DNA from: Vicinamibacteria bacterium | GTDB taxonomy: Bacteria; Acidobacteriota; Vicinamibacteria; Marinacidobacterales; Marinacidobacteraceae | Direction of reading: 5' to 3' | NCBI GenBank assembly: GCA_963668695.2 | Contig: CAXXLQ010000004.1 | Coordinates: 448,001-512,000, forward strand | DNA: 64,000 bases | Shown here: positions 33,880 through 37,892 of the stretch, piece after piece | Position numbering within the stretch: the stretch's first letter is position 1 | Layout of the letters: the number at the start of each line of letters is the position of its first letter | Made by a program: the position numbers and the translations under genes | Notes under the pieces: model-generated | Told to the model about the DNA's origin: nothing | Database searches by the model: none | The model's input: the letters and a program-made list of their open reading frames with translations, nothing else

Positions 33880-34105
33880 GCTGTGCCGGTCTGGAGGCCC
33901 CCACCGGGAGGACTGGCCGGCGTTCCCTCCCGGCGGCACCACGGGGATGTTGAGCAGTGCGCAGTCTCGCTGCGCTTCGCGCAGCGGTGCCGGCCCCCGC
34001 CGGGAGAACTGGCCAGAGGTTGGCGTTCCCCGGCCTGAATCCCGCAAGGGCAGACAGCAACGCGCCGTTCCGCGGCCCTGCGGGCCGCGGGTGCCGACCG
34101 GAGGT
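33880..34105. repeat. REP-like hairpin cluster with two 18-bp units; the last hairpin is the IS110 target
   Basis: TGCCGGTCTGGAGG[unit]CCGGCGTTCCC, TGCCGG[unit]CCAGAGGTTGGCGTTCCC, TGCCGACCGGAGGTC. Confidence 0.75.
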
Positions 34106-34119
34106 CTATACCCTTCGGA

Positions 34120-34335
34120 CTTCGTTTTCTGGGCCCTCCGGTGTGAGAGGCACCGAAGGGCCCTACTTCACCAACCTGTTAGCCGATCCGCCGGGAGCAA
34201 CCAACCGGAGGCATGTGTTTCGAACACCTACGCCGGACTGTGCCTCGACGGATCTTGGCCGTGATGGAACGCACGGTAGAAGGGCAGCGCCATCGAGCAG
34301 CCAGTATAGGCCCCAGCGAACATCACGGCGGCTGA
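34120..34335 (+). ncRNA. Predicted IS110 bridge RNA (ends approximate)
   Basis: Two stem-bounded internal loops with segments matching the target (34204-34211, 34230-34238) and the donor junction (34275-34283, 34304-34311). Confidence 0.8.
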
Positions 34336-34374
34336 CTTCCCTCGGGGGGCTTCCCTCGGAAGGACAACAGCGCC

Positions 34375-35622
34375 ATGACATCTCCTTTTCTGTTTTTCGT
34401 CGGCATCGATTGGGGCTCGACGACCCACCATGGATGCCTGCTGGAGGCGAACGGTTCGGTTCGCGGCAGCCGGGCCTTTCCCCACGGCGGCGCGGGCCAG
34501 GCGGAGCTCGTCCGCTGGCTCCTGGACGAGACCGGGGCCGCCCCCGGGCAGCTCGCGGTCGCCATCGAGACGCCCCACGGGCCGGTCGTCGAGGGCTTGC
34601 TGGTCGCCGGCTTTGCGGTGTTCGCCATCGGTCCCGCCCAGATCCGCGGCTCCCGGCGCCGCTACGTCTCCTCCGGGGCGAAGGACGACCCCCGCGATGC
34701 CTGGATGCTCGCTCGCGCCCTCCGCGCCGACCCCGACCTCTTCCGACGGGTCGAACTCGAGAAGCCTCTCGTCCTCCAACTGCGCGAACGCACCCGGACC
34801 ATCAACGAACTCACCTGCCAGCGCACCCGGCTCTGCCACCAGATCCGCCAGCAGCTCTGGCGCTACTACCCCCAACTGCTCGCGATCCCCGACCTCCTCA
34901 ATCAACTCACCCACCCCTGGTTCCGAGAGCTCTGGAACAAGGCCAAAACCCCCGCACTCGCCCTCAAGCTGCGCGTCTCCACCCTCGCCAAACTCCTCAA
35001 AAAGCACGGCATCCGGCGACTGAACGCCAAAGGCCTGTGGGAGATCCTGCACGCCCCCGCGCTCACCGTCGCCCCCGGAGCCGCCGAGGCCGCCTGCCGC
35101 GCCCTCCAAAGCCTCTTCGCCCAGGCACACACCACCAACCAACTCCTCGCCCAGGCACGAGAAGACGTCCGTGAACTGCTGAAGGCCTTCTCCCAGGCCC
35201 ACCCCGACGACGAACGACCCGACGACATGACCCTCCTCCGCTCCCTCCCCGGTGTCGGGGGCTACGTCCTCAGCACCTTGTTCGCCGAAGCCTTCGACCT
35301 CTTCCAACGCCGCGACTACCCCGCCCTCCGCGCCCGCTCCGGAGTCGCCCCCGTCAGCATCCAGTCCGGCAATACCCGCTGGGAGATCCGCCGCCTCGCC
35401 GTCCAGCACGAACTCCGCAACGCTCTCTACCACTGGGCCCGCGTCGCCGCCGTCCACGATCCCCTCAGCAAAGCCCGCTACCGCGCCCTCCGCGCCCGCG
35501 GCCACTCCCACGGACGCGCCCTCCGCACCGTCGGCGACCGGCTCCTCGCCGTCGCCTGCGCCATGCTCAAAAACGGAACCCTCTACGACCCGAAGCTCTC
35601 CCGAGACAAGCTCGCCGCCTGA
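34375..35622 (+). CDS. IS110-family DEDD recombinase/transposase
   Basis: FVGIDWG, AIE, KDDPRDA, SLPGVG, GVAPVSIQSG. Confidence 0.95.
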   Translation: MTSPFLFFVGIDWGSTTHHGCLLEANGSVRGSRAFPHGGAGQAELVRWLLDETGAAPGQLAVAIETPHGPVVEGLLVAGFAVFAIGPAQIRGSRRRYVSSGAKDDPRDAWMLARALRADPDLFRRVELEKPLVLQLRERTRTINELTCQRTRLCHQIRQQLWRYYPQLLAIPDLLNQLTHPWFRELWNKAKTPALALKLRVSTLAKLLKKHGIRRLNAKGLWEILHAPALTVAPGAAEAACRALQSLFAQAHTTNQLLAQAREDVRELLKAFSQAHPDDERPDDMTLLRSLPGVGGYVLSTLFAEAFDLFQRRDYPALRARSGVAPVSIQSGNTRWEIRRLAVQHELRNALYHWARVAAVHDPLSKARYRALRARGHSHGRALRTVGDRLLAVACAMLKNGTLYDPKLSRDKLAA

Positions 35623-35941
35623 GCAACTCCTCCAAAGAAAAAAGGATCTTCAAGGTGAGCCGGTGGGAAGTGTGGGAAACGCGCCCCTCTCCGCCGCGGC
35701 CGGCGAACAACCGCCGCCGTGGTGCCGCGTTTTCCAAGTCCTGGGGAAATCGCTTCCCGCCCCGCCGGCCCCCGAAGCCCAAACCCACCTCCCATCCCGA
35801 TTTCCCCGGGACGGCACTTTCCACCGGATACCGAGCACCCGCCCGCAGCCCTCCTTCCCCCTTGACAAAAAGGTAGAAGGTCCGGCGTTCCCTGACCTTC
35901 GCGCCACGGTGCCGGCTGGAGGCGGGCGGTCCCTTGCCCCC

Positions 35942-37669
35942 CTACCGCCGGCGGTGGAGGTAGGCAGGCGTATCGAGGTCGCCCCACCGGTCGTCTCCCA
36001 CATGCCCGGGGAGGGACATGGGCTCATCGATTACCAGCCGTGAGCTGCCGGCGCCCGGAGCACTCGCGGCACTTTCCTGGCCCGCCCCGGGGTCGCTTCC
36101 CATCGCTTCCGCGCGGTCGGTCCCGGAAGCGGCGATGGTGGGACGGGTCCCGAGTTTCGGGATGGTCCGGCCGACTCTCACGGTAGCGGCCGCATCGGCC
36201 TGGGCCACCGGCCCGGACCGGCCGGACGCGGGGGTCGCTCCCCGGGCTCCAAACGTACCGGTCGCGCGGTTCGTGAAGCGGGCGAAGTCGTGAGGGGTCG
36301 CTCCCGCTCGGCTTCGGTCGGGGAAGCCGGTGGCAACCACCGTAACCTTGATCTCGCCCGTCTTGTCCATCGCCGGGTCGAGTGCGGTCCCGATCAGGAC
36401 GTTGTCTCCCGGTTCCGCGTCCGCGGATCCGTAGATTCCCGTCGCTTCGGGAGCCACCGCGTCGCGGACGACCTCAACGGCGCGCTGGACCTCGTTCAGC
36501 GTGAGGCTCTCACCGCCCGTTACGTTGACGATGATGCTCGACGCTCCCTTGATCGAGGTGTCCTCGAGCAACGGCGAAGAAATCGCCGCTTCGGTCGCTT
36601 CCTCGACGCGATTGTCGCCCGAGGCCTGTCCAATGCCCATCACGGCGTCGCCGCGGAGCCGCATGGCGGAACGAACGTCGGCAAAGTCCAGGTTGATCTC
36701 TCCCGGCACCTGGATCAGGTCGGAAATTCCCTGAACGGCCTGGCGCACCACATCGTCGGCACACCGGAACGCGTCCCGGATCTTGAGGTTCCCGTACACC
36801 TCCACGACCCGGTCGTTCGGGACGCAGATGAGGGTATCCACAAACTCGCGGAGTTCCCGGATCCCGTCGTTGGCGGTCGTCTTCCGGCGCCTGCCCTCGA
36901 CGGTCATCGGCTTGGTCGCCACCGCGACGCAGAGGGCCTTGATTTCCTGGACCACGCAGGCGATCACCGGCGCCGCGCCGGTGCCGGTGCCACCTCCCTC
37001 ACCCACGGTGATGAAGACCATGTCGGCGCCCGCCAGCGCGTCGATGAGCAGGTTGATGTCGTCGCGCGCCGCCGACCTGCCGACTTCCGGATCGCCGCCG
37101 CAGCCGAGCCCGCCGGTGCGCTCGCTTCCCAATTGAATCTTCACCGGGGCCTTTGACAGTTCGAGAACCTGAGCGTCGGTGTTCGCGGCAATGAACTCCA
37201 CTCCGGTCACCCCGGCCTCGATCATCCGGTTGACAGCGTTGCCACCGCCGCCGCCGACGCCAATGACCTTGATGACGGCCCGTCTTTCCTGCACGTCGTC
37301 GGGAGCCGCCGAGGGCGGTTCCGCCGTCACGGCGGGCGGGGCGCCGGTCGTGGACTCGACTTCCTCCGCTTCAGCCGGTGGCTTCGTGTTCGTGGCGGCC
37401 GGCTCCTCCACCGCCACGGATCGTTCGGCACGCTCCCAAGGCGCGGCTTCCGGCGTCGCCGCCTCCGGTGTCACCGCCTCCTCCGGGTCCGCAGACTCGT
37501 CCTTGGGGGCAGCGCCCGCGCTGGCAAAGAGCGCCGGCTGGACGGCGGGCGGGGACGCCGCGGCGGCCTCCGGCCGCGAGTCCTCGGGCGGCGAGGACTT
37601 CTCCGTTTTCGGGATCCCGGCTTCGGGATCGCTGGCCTTGGGCGTCGTTTCTTCGGCGAAGAAGATCAT
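35942..37669 (-). CDS. ftsZ: Cell division protein FtsZ with long N-terminal low-complexity extension
   Basis: IKVIGVGGGGGNAV, GGGTGTG, INLDFADV, C-terminal LDTPAYLHRR; RBS AAGGAG before ATG 37669. Confidence 0.95.
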   Translation of the reverse strand: MIFFAEETTPKASDPEAGIPKTEKSSPPEDSRPEAAAASPPAVQPALFASAGAAPKDESADPEEAVTPEAATPEAAPWERAERSVAVEEPAATNTKPPAEAEEVESTTGAPPAVTAEPPSAAPDDVQERRAVIKVIGVGGGGGNAVNRMIEAGVTGVEFIAANTDAQVLELSKAPVKIQLGSERTGGLGCGGDPEVGRSAARDDINLLIDALAGADMVFITVGEGGGTGTGAAPVIACVVQEIKALCVAVATKPMTVEGRRRKTTANDGIRELREFVDTLICVPNDRVVEVYGNLKIRDAFRCADDVVRQAVQGISDLIQVPGEINLDFADVRSAMRLRGDAVMGIGQASGDNRVEEATEAAISSPLLEDTSIKGASSIIVNVTGGESLTLNEVQRAVEVVRDAVAPEATGIYGSADAEPGDNVLIGTALDPAMDKTGEIKVTVVATGFPDRSRAGATPHDFARFTNRATGTFGARGATPASGRSGPVAQADAAATVRVGRTIPKLGTRPTIAASGTDRAEAMGSDPGAGQESAASAPGAGSSRLVIDEPMSLPGHVGDDRWGDLDTPAYLHRRR

Positions 37670-37713
37670 GGATTCGCTCCTTGTTCTTGGGGTGGCTGCA
37701 GGGCGCCCCGTAG

Positions 37714-37892
37714 CAGTTCGTGGATAGAGTGACGTGAGCACCGAGATCGGCGAGGCGCCTGGCTGACAAGGCGCGCGAGGGAGGAATACCCGGTGTATTT
37801 CGACCGACGCGCAACGATGAGCGACGCGAAGCGGTGCTGTTCAGCCAGGATGCATCGCCGGTCGAATGCCGCGTGACTCTGTTCACGGGCTG
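37714..37892. mobile_element. MITE family A, empty copy (179 bp) between ftsA and ftsZ
   Basis: Degenerate TIRs, conserved core. Confidence 0.85.

Follow-up and report, generated by a model that had tools for sequence, protein, structure and literature searches.

An IS110-group insertion sequence from a Vicinamibacteria bacterium with a putative bridge RNA matching a REP hairpin and the element's own ends

Introduction

Insertion sequences of the IS110 group, as opposed to those of the IS1111 group, have a long left end and a short right end (Durrant 2024). An example is IS621 from Escherichia coli, the recombinase of which has the catalytic residues D11, E60, D102, D105, S241 and G242 (Hiraizumi 2024) and which also targets REPs, as mentioned in an earlier note on the DNA studied here and stated in Durrant 2024. 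Thousands of bridge RNAs have already been predicted (Durrant 2024), so that a further element of this kind is in itself no surprise. The Pseudomonas putida element ISPpu10 inserts into many copies of one intergenic repeat, in which a GC-rich stem-loop lies 5' of the base-paired target (10.64898/2026.03.19.712850). For the modular circles of ISPpu9/MITEPpu9 and the 'partial circles' of IS110 elements, it has been described that sub-element pieces reuse one true terminus together with one internal boundary and are found as solo copies in targets of the same kind (PMC12288879; 10.64898/2026.08.14.744561).

Here, we analysed a 64,000-nt stretch of DNA from a Vicinamibacteria bacterium, referred to as the window. 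It very probably contains an intact and recently mobile IS110-group insertion sequence, whose left end specifies a bridge RNA that reads a REP hairpin and the element's own ends.

Results

Organisation of the element

The intact IS110-group element spans 1.78 kb at about 34106-35882, or 34106-35881 on the convention of the earlier note. The interval given there, 34091-35892, holds the element but also includes about 15 nt and 10 nt of flank; every sequence statement of that note was recovered at its position. The left junction reads ACCGGAGGT up to the boundary and CTATAC beyond it, with GT at 34104-34105, and the right junction consists of GGTAGAAG (35872-35879), GT (35880-35881) and CCGGCGT (35882-35888). 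The parts of the locus, all on the + strand, are as follows; the guides are labelled LTG and RTG in the target loop and LDG and RDG in the donor loop.

34069..34090, + strand: GC-rich stem-loop of a REP unit (CCGCGGCCC-TGC-GGGCCGCGG), just 5' of the target; read from the sequence
34091..34106, + strand: left half of the REP target, GTGCCGACCGGAGG plus TC; from the sequence, the empty allele, the REP census and the sister junctions
34097-34104, + strand: left target ACCGGAGG, within the left REP half
34105-34106 or 34104-34105, + strand: candidate core, TC in our reading or GT in the earlier one
34107..34130, + strand: left terminus of the element, TATACC..., right-donor half-site; from the concordance of RDG with the left end and the sister junctions
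34109-34114, + strand: -10-like TACCCT in the left terminus
34131..34163, + strand: 5' stem-loop of the RNA, GGGCCCTCCGGTG / CACCGAAGGGCCC; from the fold, the solo units and a unitig branch at 34163/4
34185..34254, + strand: target-binding loop module; from the fold, the alignment and guide co-variation
34185-34201 with 34240-34254, + strand: outer helix of the target loop
34204-34211, plus 34212-34213, + strand: LTG in the target loop, with the inner hairpin at 34215-34227
34230-34236, + strand: RTG in the target loop, with a probable handshake dinucleotide AC at 34237-34238
34258..34329, + strand: donor-binding loop module; from the fold, the alignment and guide co-variation
34258-34266 with 34321-34329, + strand: outer helix of the donor loop
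34275-34284, + strand: LDG in the donor loop, with the inner hairpin at 34287-34301
34304-34310, + strand: RDG in the donor loop, with a probable handshake dinucleotide CC at 34311-34312
34375..35622, + strand: recombinase gene, encoding 415 aa with the domains DEDD_Tnp_IS110 and Transposase_20
35623..35881, + strand: right non-coding end of 259 nt, an unusual length for an IS110-group right end, which tends to be short
35862-35867, + strand: perfect -35 hexamer TTGACA in the right non-coding end
35872-35881, + strand: left-donor half-site GGTAGAAGGT in the right non-coding end
35882..35892, + strand: right junction with CC at 35882-35883 (donor-type core in our reading), right target GGCGT and REP TCC

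The position of the guide RNA upstream of the gene, in the left end (34185-34329), is a trait of the IS110 as opposed to the IS1111 group. The element deviates from the long-left/short-right layout, as its ends are nearly equal in length (269 and 259 nt). The right end gave no match in Rfam.

The recombinase

The 415-aa protein matches PF01548 (E 4.1e-27, 95.3 bits, cut-off 29) and PF02371 (E 8e-13, 49 bits, cut-off 21.3) in a Pfam search. Residues D12, E65, D105, D108, S331 and G332 are invariant among 14 homologs, and alignment to the ISCro4 chain recovers D12 (GIDWG), K103-D105-D108 (KDDxxD) and S331-G332 (SG). As E65 lies two residues out of register in this pairwise alignment, its catalytic assignment rests on invariance. 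The NCBIfam model NF033542, 'IS110 family RNA-guided transposase', matches over its full length (8-402, E 5.5e-39), but at 134.3 bits stays under the curated cut-off of 140, a narrow miss that marks the recombinase as a divergent member of the IS110 family. Similarity to the IS621 protein is weak (E 1.3e-7 over the C-terminal 140 residues). Of the previous description as an 'intact ortholog' of IS621, the word intact is borne out by the full-length frame and the complete set of catalytic residues, whereas ortholog is a loose term.

A structured RNA in the left end

Three stems had been named in the left end, namely GATCCG (34185-34190) with CGGATC (34249-34254) and the inner hairpin GTGTT (34215-34219) with AACAC (34223-34227) in loop 1, and GCCGTGATG (34258-34266) with CATCACGGC (34321-34329) in loop 2. 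All of them recur in the minimum-free-energy fold (-113.2 kcal/mol, z -2.58), and 2 of 200 shuffled sequences fold equally well. The internal loop of loop 1 is smaller than described, since the outer helix runs further inward (CCGGGAGC.AC with GU.GCCUCG). RNAalifold applied to 33 related left ends returned 29 consensus pairs, and compensatory changes were seen in 21. Of the cells in the 29 pairs, 95.5% are paired, as compared to 29.4-49.5% with slid partners, and none of 500 shuffles reached the observed value on any of five measures. The fold and covariation check proposed beforehand thus shows that the helices co-vary in related RNAs, and protein domains, catalytic residues, helix co-variation, guide co-variation and the junctions in sister genomes all agree with an IS110-group element of IS621-type two-loop bridge architecture. 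A search of Rfam with the RNA returned no matches at E up to 1.

The guides and their co-variation with flanks and ends

The four guide words lie in the left end where they had been placed, ACCGGAGG at 34204-34211, ACGCCGGAC at 34230-34238, GGTAGAAGG at 34275-34283 and GTATAGGC at 34304-34311. Loop 1 repeats the left target in the same sense on its 5' side and is complementary to the right target on its 3' side, and loop 2 follows this polarity for the element's own ends. We counted 8, 9, 9 and 6+3 guide pairs, respectively. When the 255-nt left end was shuffled 200,000 times, the words arose with chances of 0.0089, 0.0031, 0.00094 and 0.026; the product is 6.8e-10 if the words are taken as independent and their order is ignored.

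Across 54 distinct loci, the reverse complement of RTG matches the 7-nt right flank at 6.57 of 7 positions (4.19 when permuted) and agreement between LTG and the left flank is 6.54 of 10 (4.94 when permuted), values reached in 0 of 10,000 permutations in both cases. For example, L010 has an LTG ending in CCAGAGGT and the flank CCAGAGGT, while L103 combines the LTG GCCGGAGGCC with the flank GCCGGAGGCC. LDG and RDG variants likewise agree with right-end and left-end variants among relatives, the corresponding guide/end pairs in the window being GTAGAAGG and GTATAG/CTATAC. The proposal that the guides are programmed against a REP-like hairpin and the element's own ends is thereby strengthened, as they co-vary with flanks and ends across relatives.

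Copies in sister genomes and an empty allele

The element is single-copy in its own genome. That other copies should sit in the REP motif had been put forward as a check, and in two sister genomes the same junctions recur at 14 further left ends whose flanks are distinct; the sister copies occupy many different REP sites. Stem-loops like the REP hairpin at 34069-34090 lie upstream of every sister-genome insertion site (flanks of L011-L016). The left end of the sister copies measures about 600 nt, and that of the window's element is 330 nt shorter than in most of them; L101, a near-identical copy with a short left end, is present at another locus in a sister genome. When six sister-genome insertions were set against the orthologous sites of the window's genome, the REP clusters were too variable to read empty sites.

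An empty allele of the window's own locus was found in two runs of different studies. Run X1 contains both the empty and the occupied allele, and in run X4 the empty-allele contig has a depth of 226.6 versus 74.7 for the occupied junction. The insertion sequence is intact and recently mobile, and its insertion is polymorphic in natural populations.

A promoter-like arrangement at the joined ends

Joining of the ends places TTGACA of the right end 17 nt from TACCCT of the left end, and a -35-like box is present at the equivalent place in seven of the ten families compared. The -10 candidates at the junction are weak, TACCCT at 17 nt (3/6) or TATACC at 15 nt, and a junction promoter with TACCCT would fall below the thresholds of the promoter search; in the linear state, no promoter-like site was found. 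In an RNA library, contigs over 34125-34251 have depths of 2059.5 and 452.8 as compared to 23-42 over the gene; these are assembled contigs, without strand or ends, of a relative at 94% identity. Parts of the 64-kb stretch are without cover in the RNA runs, which contain small shares of its words.

Solo left-end units of 58 bp

Four solo units of 58 bp keep the left terminus and end at a common inner boundary, 34163/4, which corresponds to the 3' foot of the RNA's 5' stem-loop; a unitig branch lies at the same position. This boundary matches the left-donor guide only in its last 6 nt. We considered that the true left end might be at about 34164, with the element inserted into an older 58-bp REP insertion, and rejected this, since the full sister copies all carry this part behind the same left terminus and the match of RDG is to TATAC at 34107 rather than to what stands at 34164. 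A microhomology deletion between two GAAGG words predicts GAAGGT+CCGG, a sequence present in 0 of the 4 units. Solo left ends are also not a general feature, as all 19 left-end matches in the L020 genome are full-length and the sister genome G002 has no solo units. At the orthologous loci in sister genomes, no full element was found. The REP clusters at the solo-unit loci are too variable to tell a scar from a reinsertion.

Discussion

By homology to IS621, we infer a bridge mechanism for this element. The 415-aa DEDD/serine recombinase would act together with an RNA of about 210 nt from the left end. The 3' side of an RNA loop, being complementary to the right half-site, would pair with the top strand, and with loop pairing on both halves, one RNA could hold the host REP hairpin next to the excised element's joined ends so that the two recombine site-specifically. 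A putative promoter at the joined ends (TTGACA/TACCCT) would drive the RNA and the gene.

Two other explanations question whether the element still moves or whether the matches are guides at all. The locus might be a dead relic, that is, a copy that has the structure of a bridge-RNA insertion sequence and no longer moves, for which one could cite its single-copy state, several decayed IS110 fragments elsewhere in the genome, the shortened left end and the NCBIfam score below the cut-off. However, we regard this as improbable: the frame is full-length with all catalytic residues, helices and guides are all intact, a near-identical copy with the same short left end is found elsewhere in a sister genome, the insertion is polymorphic, and exact targets stand empty, seven of the one-C and four of the two-C form. 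Even less credible, to the point of being very improbable, is that REP- and end-derived sequences are carried passively in a structured 5' leader that regulates only the recombinase gene. REP-like words do occur in the left end, 9 of 13 positions in the 3' arm of its 5' stem-loop are as in the target, and the leader of ISPpu9 is regulatory (PMC12288879). But in 34 different guide pairs from other taxa, these loop positions vary together with unrelated targets and the helices persist, and the strand polarity is as shown for IS621 (Durrant 2024).

The junctions alone permit GG, GT or TC as the core, because GGTC is common to both. In its exact form, the model of the earlier note comprised a two-C target, ACCGGAG-GT-CCGGCGT, a GT core shared by both partners, a circle of 1776 bp and long right guides (RT 7 nt plus core; RD 6 nt plus core). 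This model has merits: GT stands on both junctions and no heterologous cores are needed, RTG pairs with nine contiguous bases of the rejoined flanks plus a wobble and RDG with nine, one a wobble, the rejoined 16-mer occurs exactly four times in the genome in a REP context, and LTG position 10 tracks the flank in L010 (T) and L103 (C). Nevertheless, we consider it rather unlikely. The empty allele of the locus itself has one C fewer, skips 1777 and not 1776 nt and reads GGAGGT+CGGCGT; the two-C form is a minority REP (9-11 copies versus 61-92); compared with all relatives, the register of RTG and LDG would be shifted by 2 nt; both handshake positions would be mismatched; and the four solo units would need two different registers. 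The 'probable GT core' is thus probably wrong, as the empty allele, the relatives' register and the REP census favour a crossover one or two bases further to the right. We lean towards a reading in which a donor CC core (GGTAGAAGGT, CC, TATACC) recombines with the common REP form ACCGGAGG-TC-GGCGT, the TC of the target staying on the left and the CC of the donor on the right. In the census, GGAGGTCGGCG was found 92 times in the genome, as compared to 9 times for the two-C form. Relatives of about 50% identity have a CC core, which is unambiguous from the empty site adjoining L062, and with the CC/TC crossover the positions of RTG, RDG and LDG share their register. The left junction dinucleotide is TC in 14 of 15 cases and the right one CC in all eight, and such a constant pair is the pattern expected from an exchange of the top strand only. 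The right-hand guides, previously described as long, would then probably break down into a 5-nt guide, the 2-nt core and a 2-nt handshake guide.

Several observations speak against CC/TC. The LTG positions opposite the core read CA, as do those of LDG, which means poor pairing and leaves the core positions of both largely unpaired. In the state that precedes recombination, pairing of the RNA is more extensive if the target is the two-C form and the core is GT or GG, and exact two-C sites are present (n=4); GT needs two mismatches and a wobble, whereas GG (34103-4 / 35879-80) is the only dinucleotide paired by all four guides, on both strands and in both loops. In addition, the empty allele could reflect an unrelated 1-nt change or REP gene conversion. 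More tentatively than the core assignment itself, we speculate that CC-donor/TC-target recombination, with the left dinucleotide from the target (14/15) and the right from the donor (8/8), goes together with 58-bp units that represent the smallest known IS110 derivative and are made or moved through the 6-nt left-donor half-match at the foot of the 5' stem-loop.

Judged from its sequence, the element is a well-documented addition to the bridge-recombinase systems. It is apparently active, comes from an uncultured, GC-rich lineage that is marine or sponge-associated, and offers four readable guides, a non-CT core and a range of target variants that occur in nature. The asymmetric junctions and the single base by which the empty allele departs from the rejoined flanks bear on whether IS110 elements move by double-strand cut-and-paste or by one-strand exchange; if the CC/TC reading is true, they would provide population-genomic support for single-strand copy-and-paste transposition. 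The solo left ends represent natural partial-element products with one fixed internal boundary.

Comparison with known systems

The kind of element is known from IS621 (Durrant 2024), to which the window adds a member whose clade could already be in the supplementary tables of that study. Like IS621 (Durrant 2024, Hiraizumi 2024), it combines a DEDD (RuvC-like) domain and a Tnp domain with its serine with a left-end RNA made up of a 5' stem-loop, a target-binding loop and a donor-binding loop, has a 2-nt core and a REP target, and carries a -35 element in the right end, from which a promoter may form across the joined ends. The polarity of the guides, with the 5' side in the same sense and the 3' side antisense, is also that of IS621 (Durrant 2024). 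In contrast to IS621, the protein is longer (415 aa versus 328 residues in the solved IS621 chain) and only distantly related, the core is other than CT and that of the donor may depart at one base from that of the target, the right end (259 nt) roughly equals the left end in length, the RNA is matched by no Rfam model, and the host is a GC-rich uncultured bacterium.

As described for ISPpu10, a GC-rich hairpin lies a few bases upstream of GCCGACCGGAGG at every insertion site, although here its sequence varies between sites and the repeat family is a different one. The 58-bp solo copies, which reach from the left terminus to 34163/4 and sit in the same kind of target, resemble the pieces described for ISPpu9/MITEPpu9, but they are far smaller and without a gene, and are absent from a relative with 19 copies.

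A further comparison is with the relatives L017-L089, of about 50% protein identity, which come from Alphaproteobacteria, Gemmatimonadota, Rhodothermales, Vicinamibacterales and other MAGs. Common to them and the window's element are the RNA scaffold (CCGGGAGCAACC ... GGAC-TGTGCC; GCCGCGATGG ... GCATCGCGGC) and the distance of the -35 box from the right terminus, and their left terminus is (C)TGTACC. Their donor ends read GGTGGGGAGT / TGTAC as compared to GGTAGAAGGT / TATAC in the window, their right ends are mostly shorter, at about 50-390 nt from the aligned gene end as taken from copy boundaries and protein match ends, and most of their targets are rich in C, donor and target both having a CC core.

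Recombinase and ends of the element

The IS110-group insertion belongs to a known kind of system, of which it is a new and apparently active representative from an uncultured lineage. Its left junction reads ACCGGAGGT/CTATACC and its right junction GGTAGAAGGT/CCGGCGT, with the T before the slash at 34105 and 35881, respectively, and the following feature lies between them:

34375-35622, + strand: recombinase frame, 415 aa, the single long frame between both junctions

The protein exceeds the Pfam cut-offs for the domains DEDD_Tnp_IS110 (E 4.1e-27) and Transposase_20 (E 8e-13), and matches the NCBIfam model 'IS110 family RNA-guided transposase' over its full length with 134.3 bits, narrowly below the cut-off of 140. 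Residues D12, E65, D105, D108, S331 and G332 are shared by all 14 homologs aligned, the most distant of them 50% identical. The only related solved structures are the ISCro4 (E 2.6e-8) and IS621 (E 1.3e-7) transposases, and because these match only at such values, the recombinase is a distant member of the family and no close ortholog of IS621; the earlier note had called the element an ortholog.

At the right end, GGTGGGAAGT (35662-35671, 40 nt past the stop codon) is identical to the right terminus of the distant relatives L056 and L088, which suggests that this end may have been extended by approximately 210 nt; alternatively, the match may be due to chance. Contigs of the public sequencing runs X1, X4 and X16 skip 41 nt (35686-35726) and have one A instead, which is a right-end variant of other copies or strains. 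Just downstream of the element, a 599-aa frame (35942-37741, - strand) contains an FtsZ-like glycine-rich motif, GGGGGNAVNRM, preceded by an extended N-terminal region in which Ala, Pro and Glu are abundant.

Predicted fold of the bridge RNA

The predicted fold of the 269-nt left end (-113.2 kcal/mol, z -2.58) consists of a 5' hairpin at 34131-34163 and the two stem-loop modules, with their internal loops, that the earlier note had described; 2 of 200 shuffles folded equally well. An Rfam search gave no matches at E up to 1. Relatives were collected by a protein search (6215 among 8000 scored candidates) and a scan of species-representative genomes, in which 476 of 529 candidate stretches were confirmed and the best 80 loci kept. 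We chose 34 loci by eye, one per sequence family, dropped one that was identical and aligned the remaining 33 left-end segments. RNAalifold yielded 29 pairs, 21 with compensatory changes, which bears out the two internal-loop modules read earlier. Standard pairs were present in 95.5% of 954 cells, versus 29.4-49.5% when the 3' partners were slid by 1-3 columns, and the observed pairing was matched by 0 of 500 column shuffles on each of five measures; the tested structure was derived from the same alignment, which biases the comparison somewhat in its favour, but the gap is far larger than that bias. The helices are conserved. Within the RNA, variation is greatest in loop 1, on both its 5' and its 3' strand; loop 2 hardly varies among distant relatives and is different in the lineage of the window.

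Guides and their covariation with targets and ends

The pairing map places target guides in loop 1 and donor guides in loop 2:

34204-34211: left target guide (LTG), same sense as left flank 34097-34104
34230-34238: right target guide (RTG), complementary to 34104-34105 and 35882-35888
34275-34283: left donor guide (LDG), same sense as right terminus 35872-35880
34304-34312: right donor guide (RDG), complementary to 35879-35881 and 34106-34111, with one G:T pair

On re-reading and in this map, all sequence statements of the earlier note proved correct, position by position. The four guide words occurred in left-end shuffles at 0.0089, 0.0031, 0.00094 and 0.026 (product 6.8e-10).

Junctions in 81 loci (the window and L010-L089) were placed by conserved end motifs alone, leaving the target guides unused. 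A 10-nt LTG and the motifs of both junctions could be located in 67, of which 54 are distinct, with 34 different guide pairs; the remaining 14 had a motif missing or were misaligned, among them L015 (no left-end motif) and L059 (left end interrupted). Over the 54 loci, the reverse complement of the RTG averaged 6.57 matches to the 7 nt past the right terminus, versus 4.19 with guides permuted among loci (0/10,000). The LTG agreed with the 10 nt preceding the left terminus at 6.54 versus 4.94 (0/10,000) when the best of two registers was taken in observed and permuted data alike, and at 4.81 versus 3.95 (0/10,000) in one fixed register. The LDG variants GTGGGGAGT, GTAGGGAGT, GTGGAGAGT, GTGGGAAGT, GTAGAGAGT and the window's GTAGAAGG are each found with the same right terminus, with two one-base exceptions, and the RDG variants GTACAG, ATACAG and GTATAG pair with the left ends CTGTAC, CTGTAT and CTATAC, respectively. 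Flank and guide have changed together in L010 (both CCAGAGGT) and in L103 (both GCCGGAGGCC). The two-loop, IS621-type guide architecture read from the window is therefore upheld, with guides at the proposed positions that covary with flanks and ends over 54 distinct loci.

Position of the crossover

Since GGTC is common to both junctions, GG, GT or TC are all possible as a common core. The earlier note had chosen GT, which does fall within GGTC, but five observations favour a donor with a CC core that recombines with a TC-core target in the REP, the host repeat with a hairpin; we regard this as fairly probable and the GT core as rather unlikely. The empty allele, in which 1777 nt are skipped, reads GGAGGT+CGGCGT and thus has one C less than the rejoined flanks ACCGGAG-GT-CCGGCGT (the two-C form). 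The prevailing REP has one C, with 92 copies of GGAGGTCGGCG in the genome versus 9 of the two-C form, and this one-C form is a perfect hairpin, GCCGACC-GGA-GGTCGGC. In distant relatives the core is unambiguously CC, as the empty site GGGGTC-CC-TTTTC adjoins L062, where the right end stops ...GGGGAGT and the left end begins TGTACC. In the register given by the RNA alignment, the window's RTG reads ACGCC (right target GGCGT), GG (core) and AC, and its RDG GUAUA (left terminus TATAC), GG (core) and CC. Of the trailing dinucleotides, AC is complementary to the terminal GT of the right end and CC to the terminal GG of the left target, which is the place and role of the IS621 handshake guides in Hiraizumi 2024. 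Finally, the dinucleotide at the left junction is TC in 14 of 15 copies; L103, the exception, has CC both there and in its guide. At the right junction it is CC in 8/8.

Precisely these junctions would result from a CC-core donor and a TC-core target, provided that the top-strand products were kept; single-strand excision has been reported for IS621 in a preprint. Against the CC/TC reading stand the LTG and LDG positions facing the core, which are CA and CA, the pairing map, in which no dinucleotide other than GG is paired in both loops and on both strands, and the four exact two-C sites in the genome. The empty allele might also differ by an unrelated 1-nt change.

Mobility and natural polymorphism

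The window's own genome holds one full copy only; copies 91-93% identical to it are present in two MAGs titled Candidatus Marinacidobacterium sp. In the window and the sister genomes, all 15 IS-type left junctions with distinct flanks lie in the same REP motif and the right junctions are alike in 8/8, so that the proposed check for other copies in this motif is answered positively in the sister genomes, the own genome being single-copy. In run X1, a 1323-nt contig (depth 32.1) joins 34105 straight to 35883 and represents the empty allele of the window locus; the occupied allele is present in the same run, on a contig of 1800 nt with depth 43.4. The contig of the right flank in X4 (depth 226.6) continues into GGTGCCGACCGGAGGT, as in the X1 empty allele, and the occupied junction in X4 has a depth of 74.7. 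As both alleles occur in public runs, the insertion is polymorphic in nature.

Most sister copies have a left end approximately 330 nt longer (L011:930-1270); the extra piece includes a long inverted repeat, and portions of the piece are also found by themselves at other places. At one and the same locus, the left end is short in sister genome G001 (L101) and long in G002 (L016), and another copy (G002:C1:1834491-1836717; L102, L104) is interrupted by approximately 1.6 kb within the long left end. A second, decayed IS110 element is present twice with identical flanks in the own genome, G000 (C4:310700-311750, L007; C1:137100-138150, L008); its own bridge-like left end (LTG AAGAGGCCCC, flank TCAGGCCCC) immediately precedes what is the C-terminal half of a recombinase gene.

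Solo left ends and host repeats

Terminus, -10-like box and 5' hairpin together make up the first 58 nt of the element. Such units stand alone at the same REP position in three other places of the own genome (99, 99 and 89% identical) and once in a sister genome:

G000:C4:3527770-3527842: solo 58-bp unit L002
G000:C4:1498537-1498609: solo 58-bp unit L003
G000:C4:788834-788908: solo 58-bp unit L004
G001:C1:2331647-2331722: solo 58-bp unit L107, sister genome

All four stop at the hairpin's 3' foot (34163/4); the next bases are CC or TC and, after these, GGCGT or CGGCGT. The final six bases of the unit, GAAGGG, match the LDG in register. In sister genome G001, a fifth remnant (L120) breaks off at another point, after approximately 44 nt. 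In X4, a 71-nt unitig (34093-34163) has a depth of 387 versus 246 for the remainder of the element. A relative with 19 copies yielded no solo left ends. The units may be scars of partial excision or reinserted mini-donors.

The REP family has at least 150 copies genome-wide that fit a loose pattern, in which a variable GC-rich hairpin is followed by GCCGACCGGAGG(T/C)C(C)GGCG(T/G)TCC, the main form itself being a 7-bp hairpin. Two further variants lie just upstream of the element (33905-33930 and 33995-34025). A different repeat of approximately 105-111 nt, with hundreds of copies in the own genome (e.g. C4:1336028-1336139), is matched by the right flank of L013.

Expression and promoter

In the RNA library X15, contigs covering 34125-34251 have depths of 2059.5 and 452.8 and, being 94% identical to the window, derive from a relative's copy. 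Gene contigs have depths of 23-42 and the right end 0-6, and two DNA-like runs are flat over the element. This is a weak hint that the left-end RNA is expressed, as the contigs carry neither strand nor ends and RNA libraries may contain DNA. A promoter scan found no sigma-70-like site in the linear element. The right end contains a perfect TTGACA (35862-35867), and of the 10 families shown, 7 have a -35-like box at the same place (TTGACA in 3, TTTACA or TTGCAA in 4). With the ends joined, as predicted, the spacing from TTGACA would be 17 nt to TACCCT (34109-34114) or 15 nt to TATACC; either is a weak -10 box. A terminator-like hairpin spans the left junction (34098-34128; flank CCGGAGG with element CCTTCGG, then a T-run) and may be due to chance, since the scan found 2 such sites versus 1.5 expected.

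Comparison with known systems

The kind of system was read correctly in the earlier note; core and target form probably need revision. Bridge RNAs of this kind were described in 2024 and, in Durrant 2024, are predicted for most IS110 elements (85.7% of IS110-group and 93.0% of IS1111-group entries in ISfinder); guide polarity and layout here are those given there for IS621. The junction asymmetry and the solo units are what merits experiment. The latter are comparable to the sub-element products described for ISPpu9/MITEPpu9 (PMC12288879) and to the IS110 'partial circles', in which one terminus is reused and only a half-match is needed (preprint 10.64898/2026.08.14.744561).
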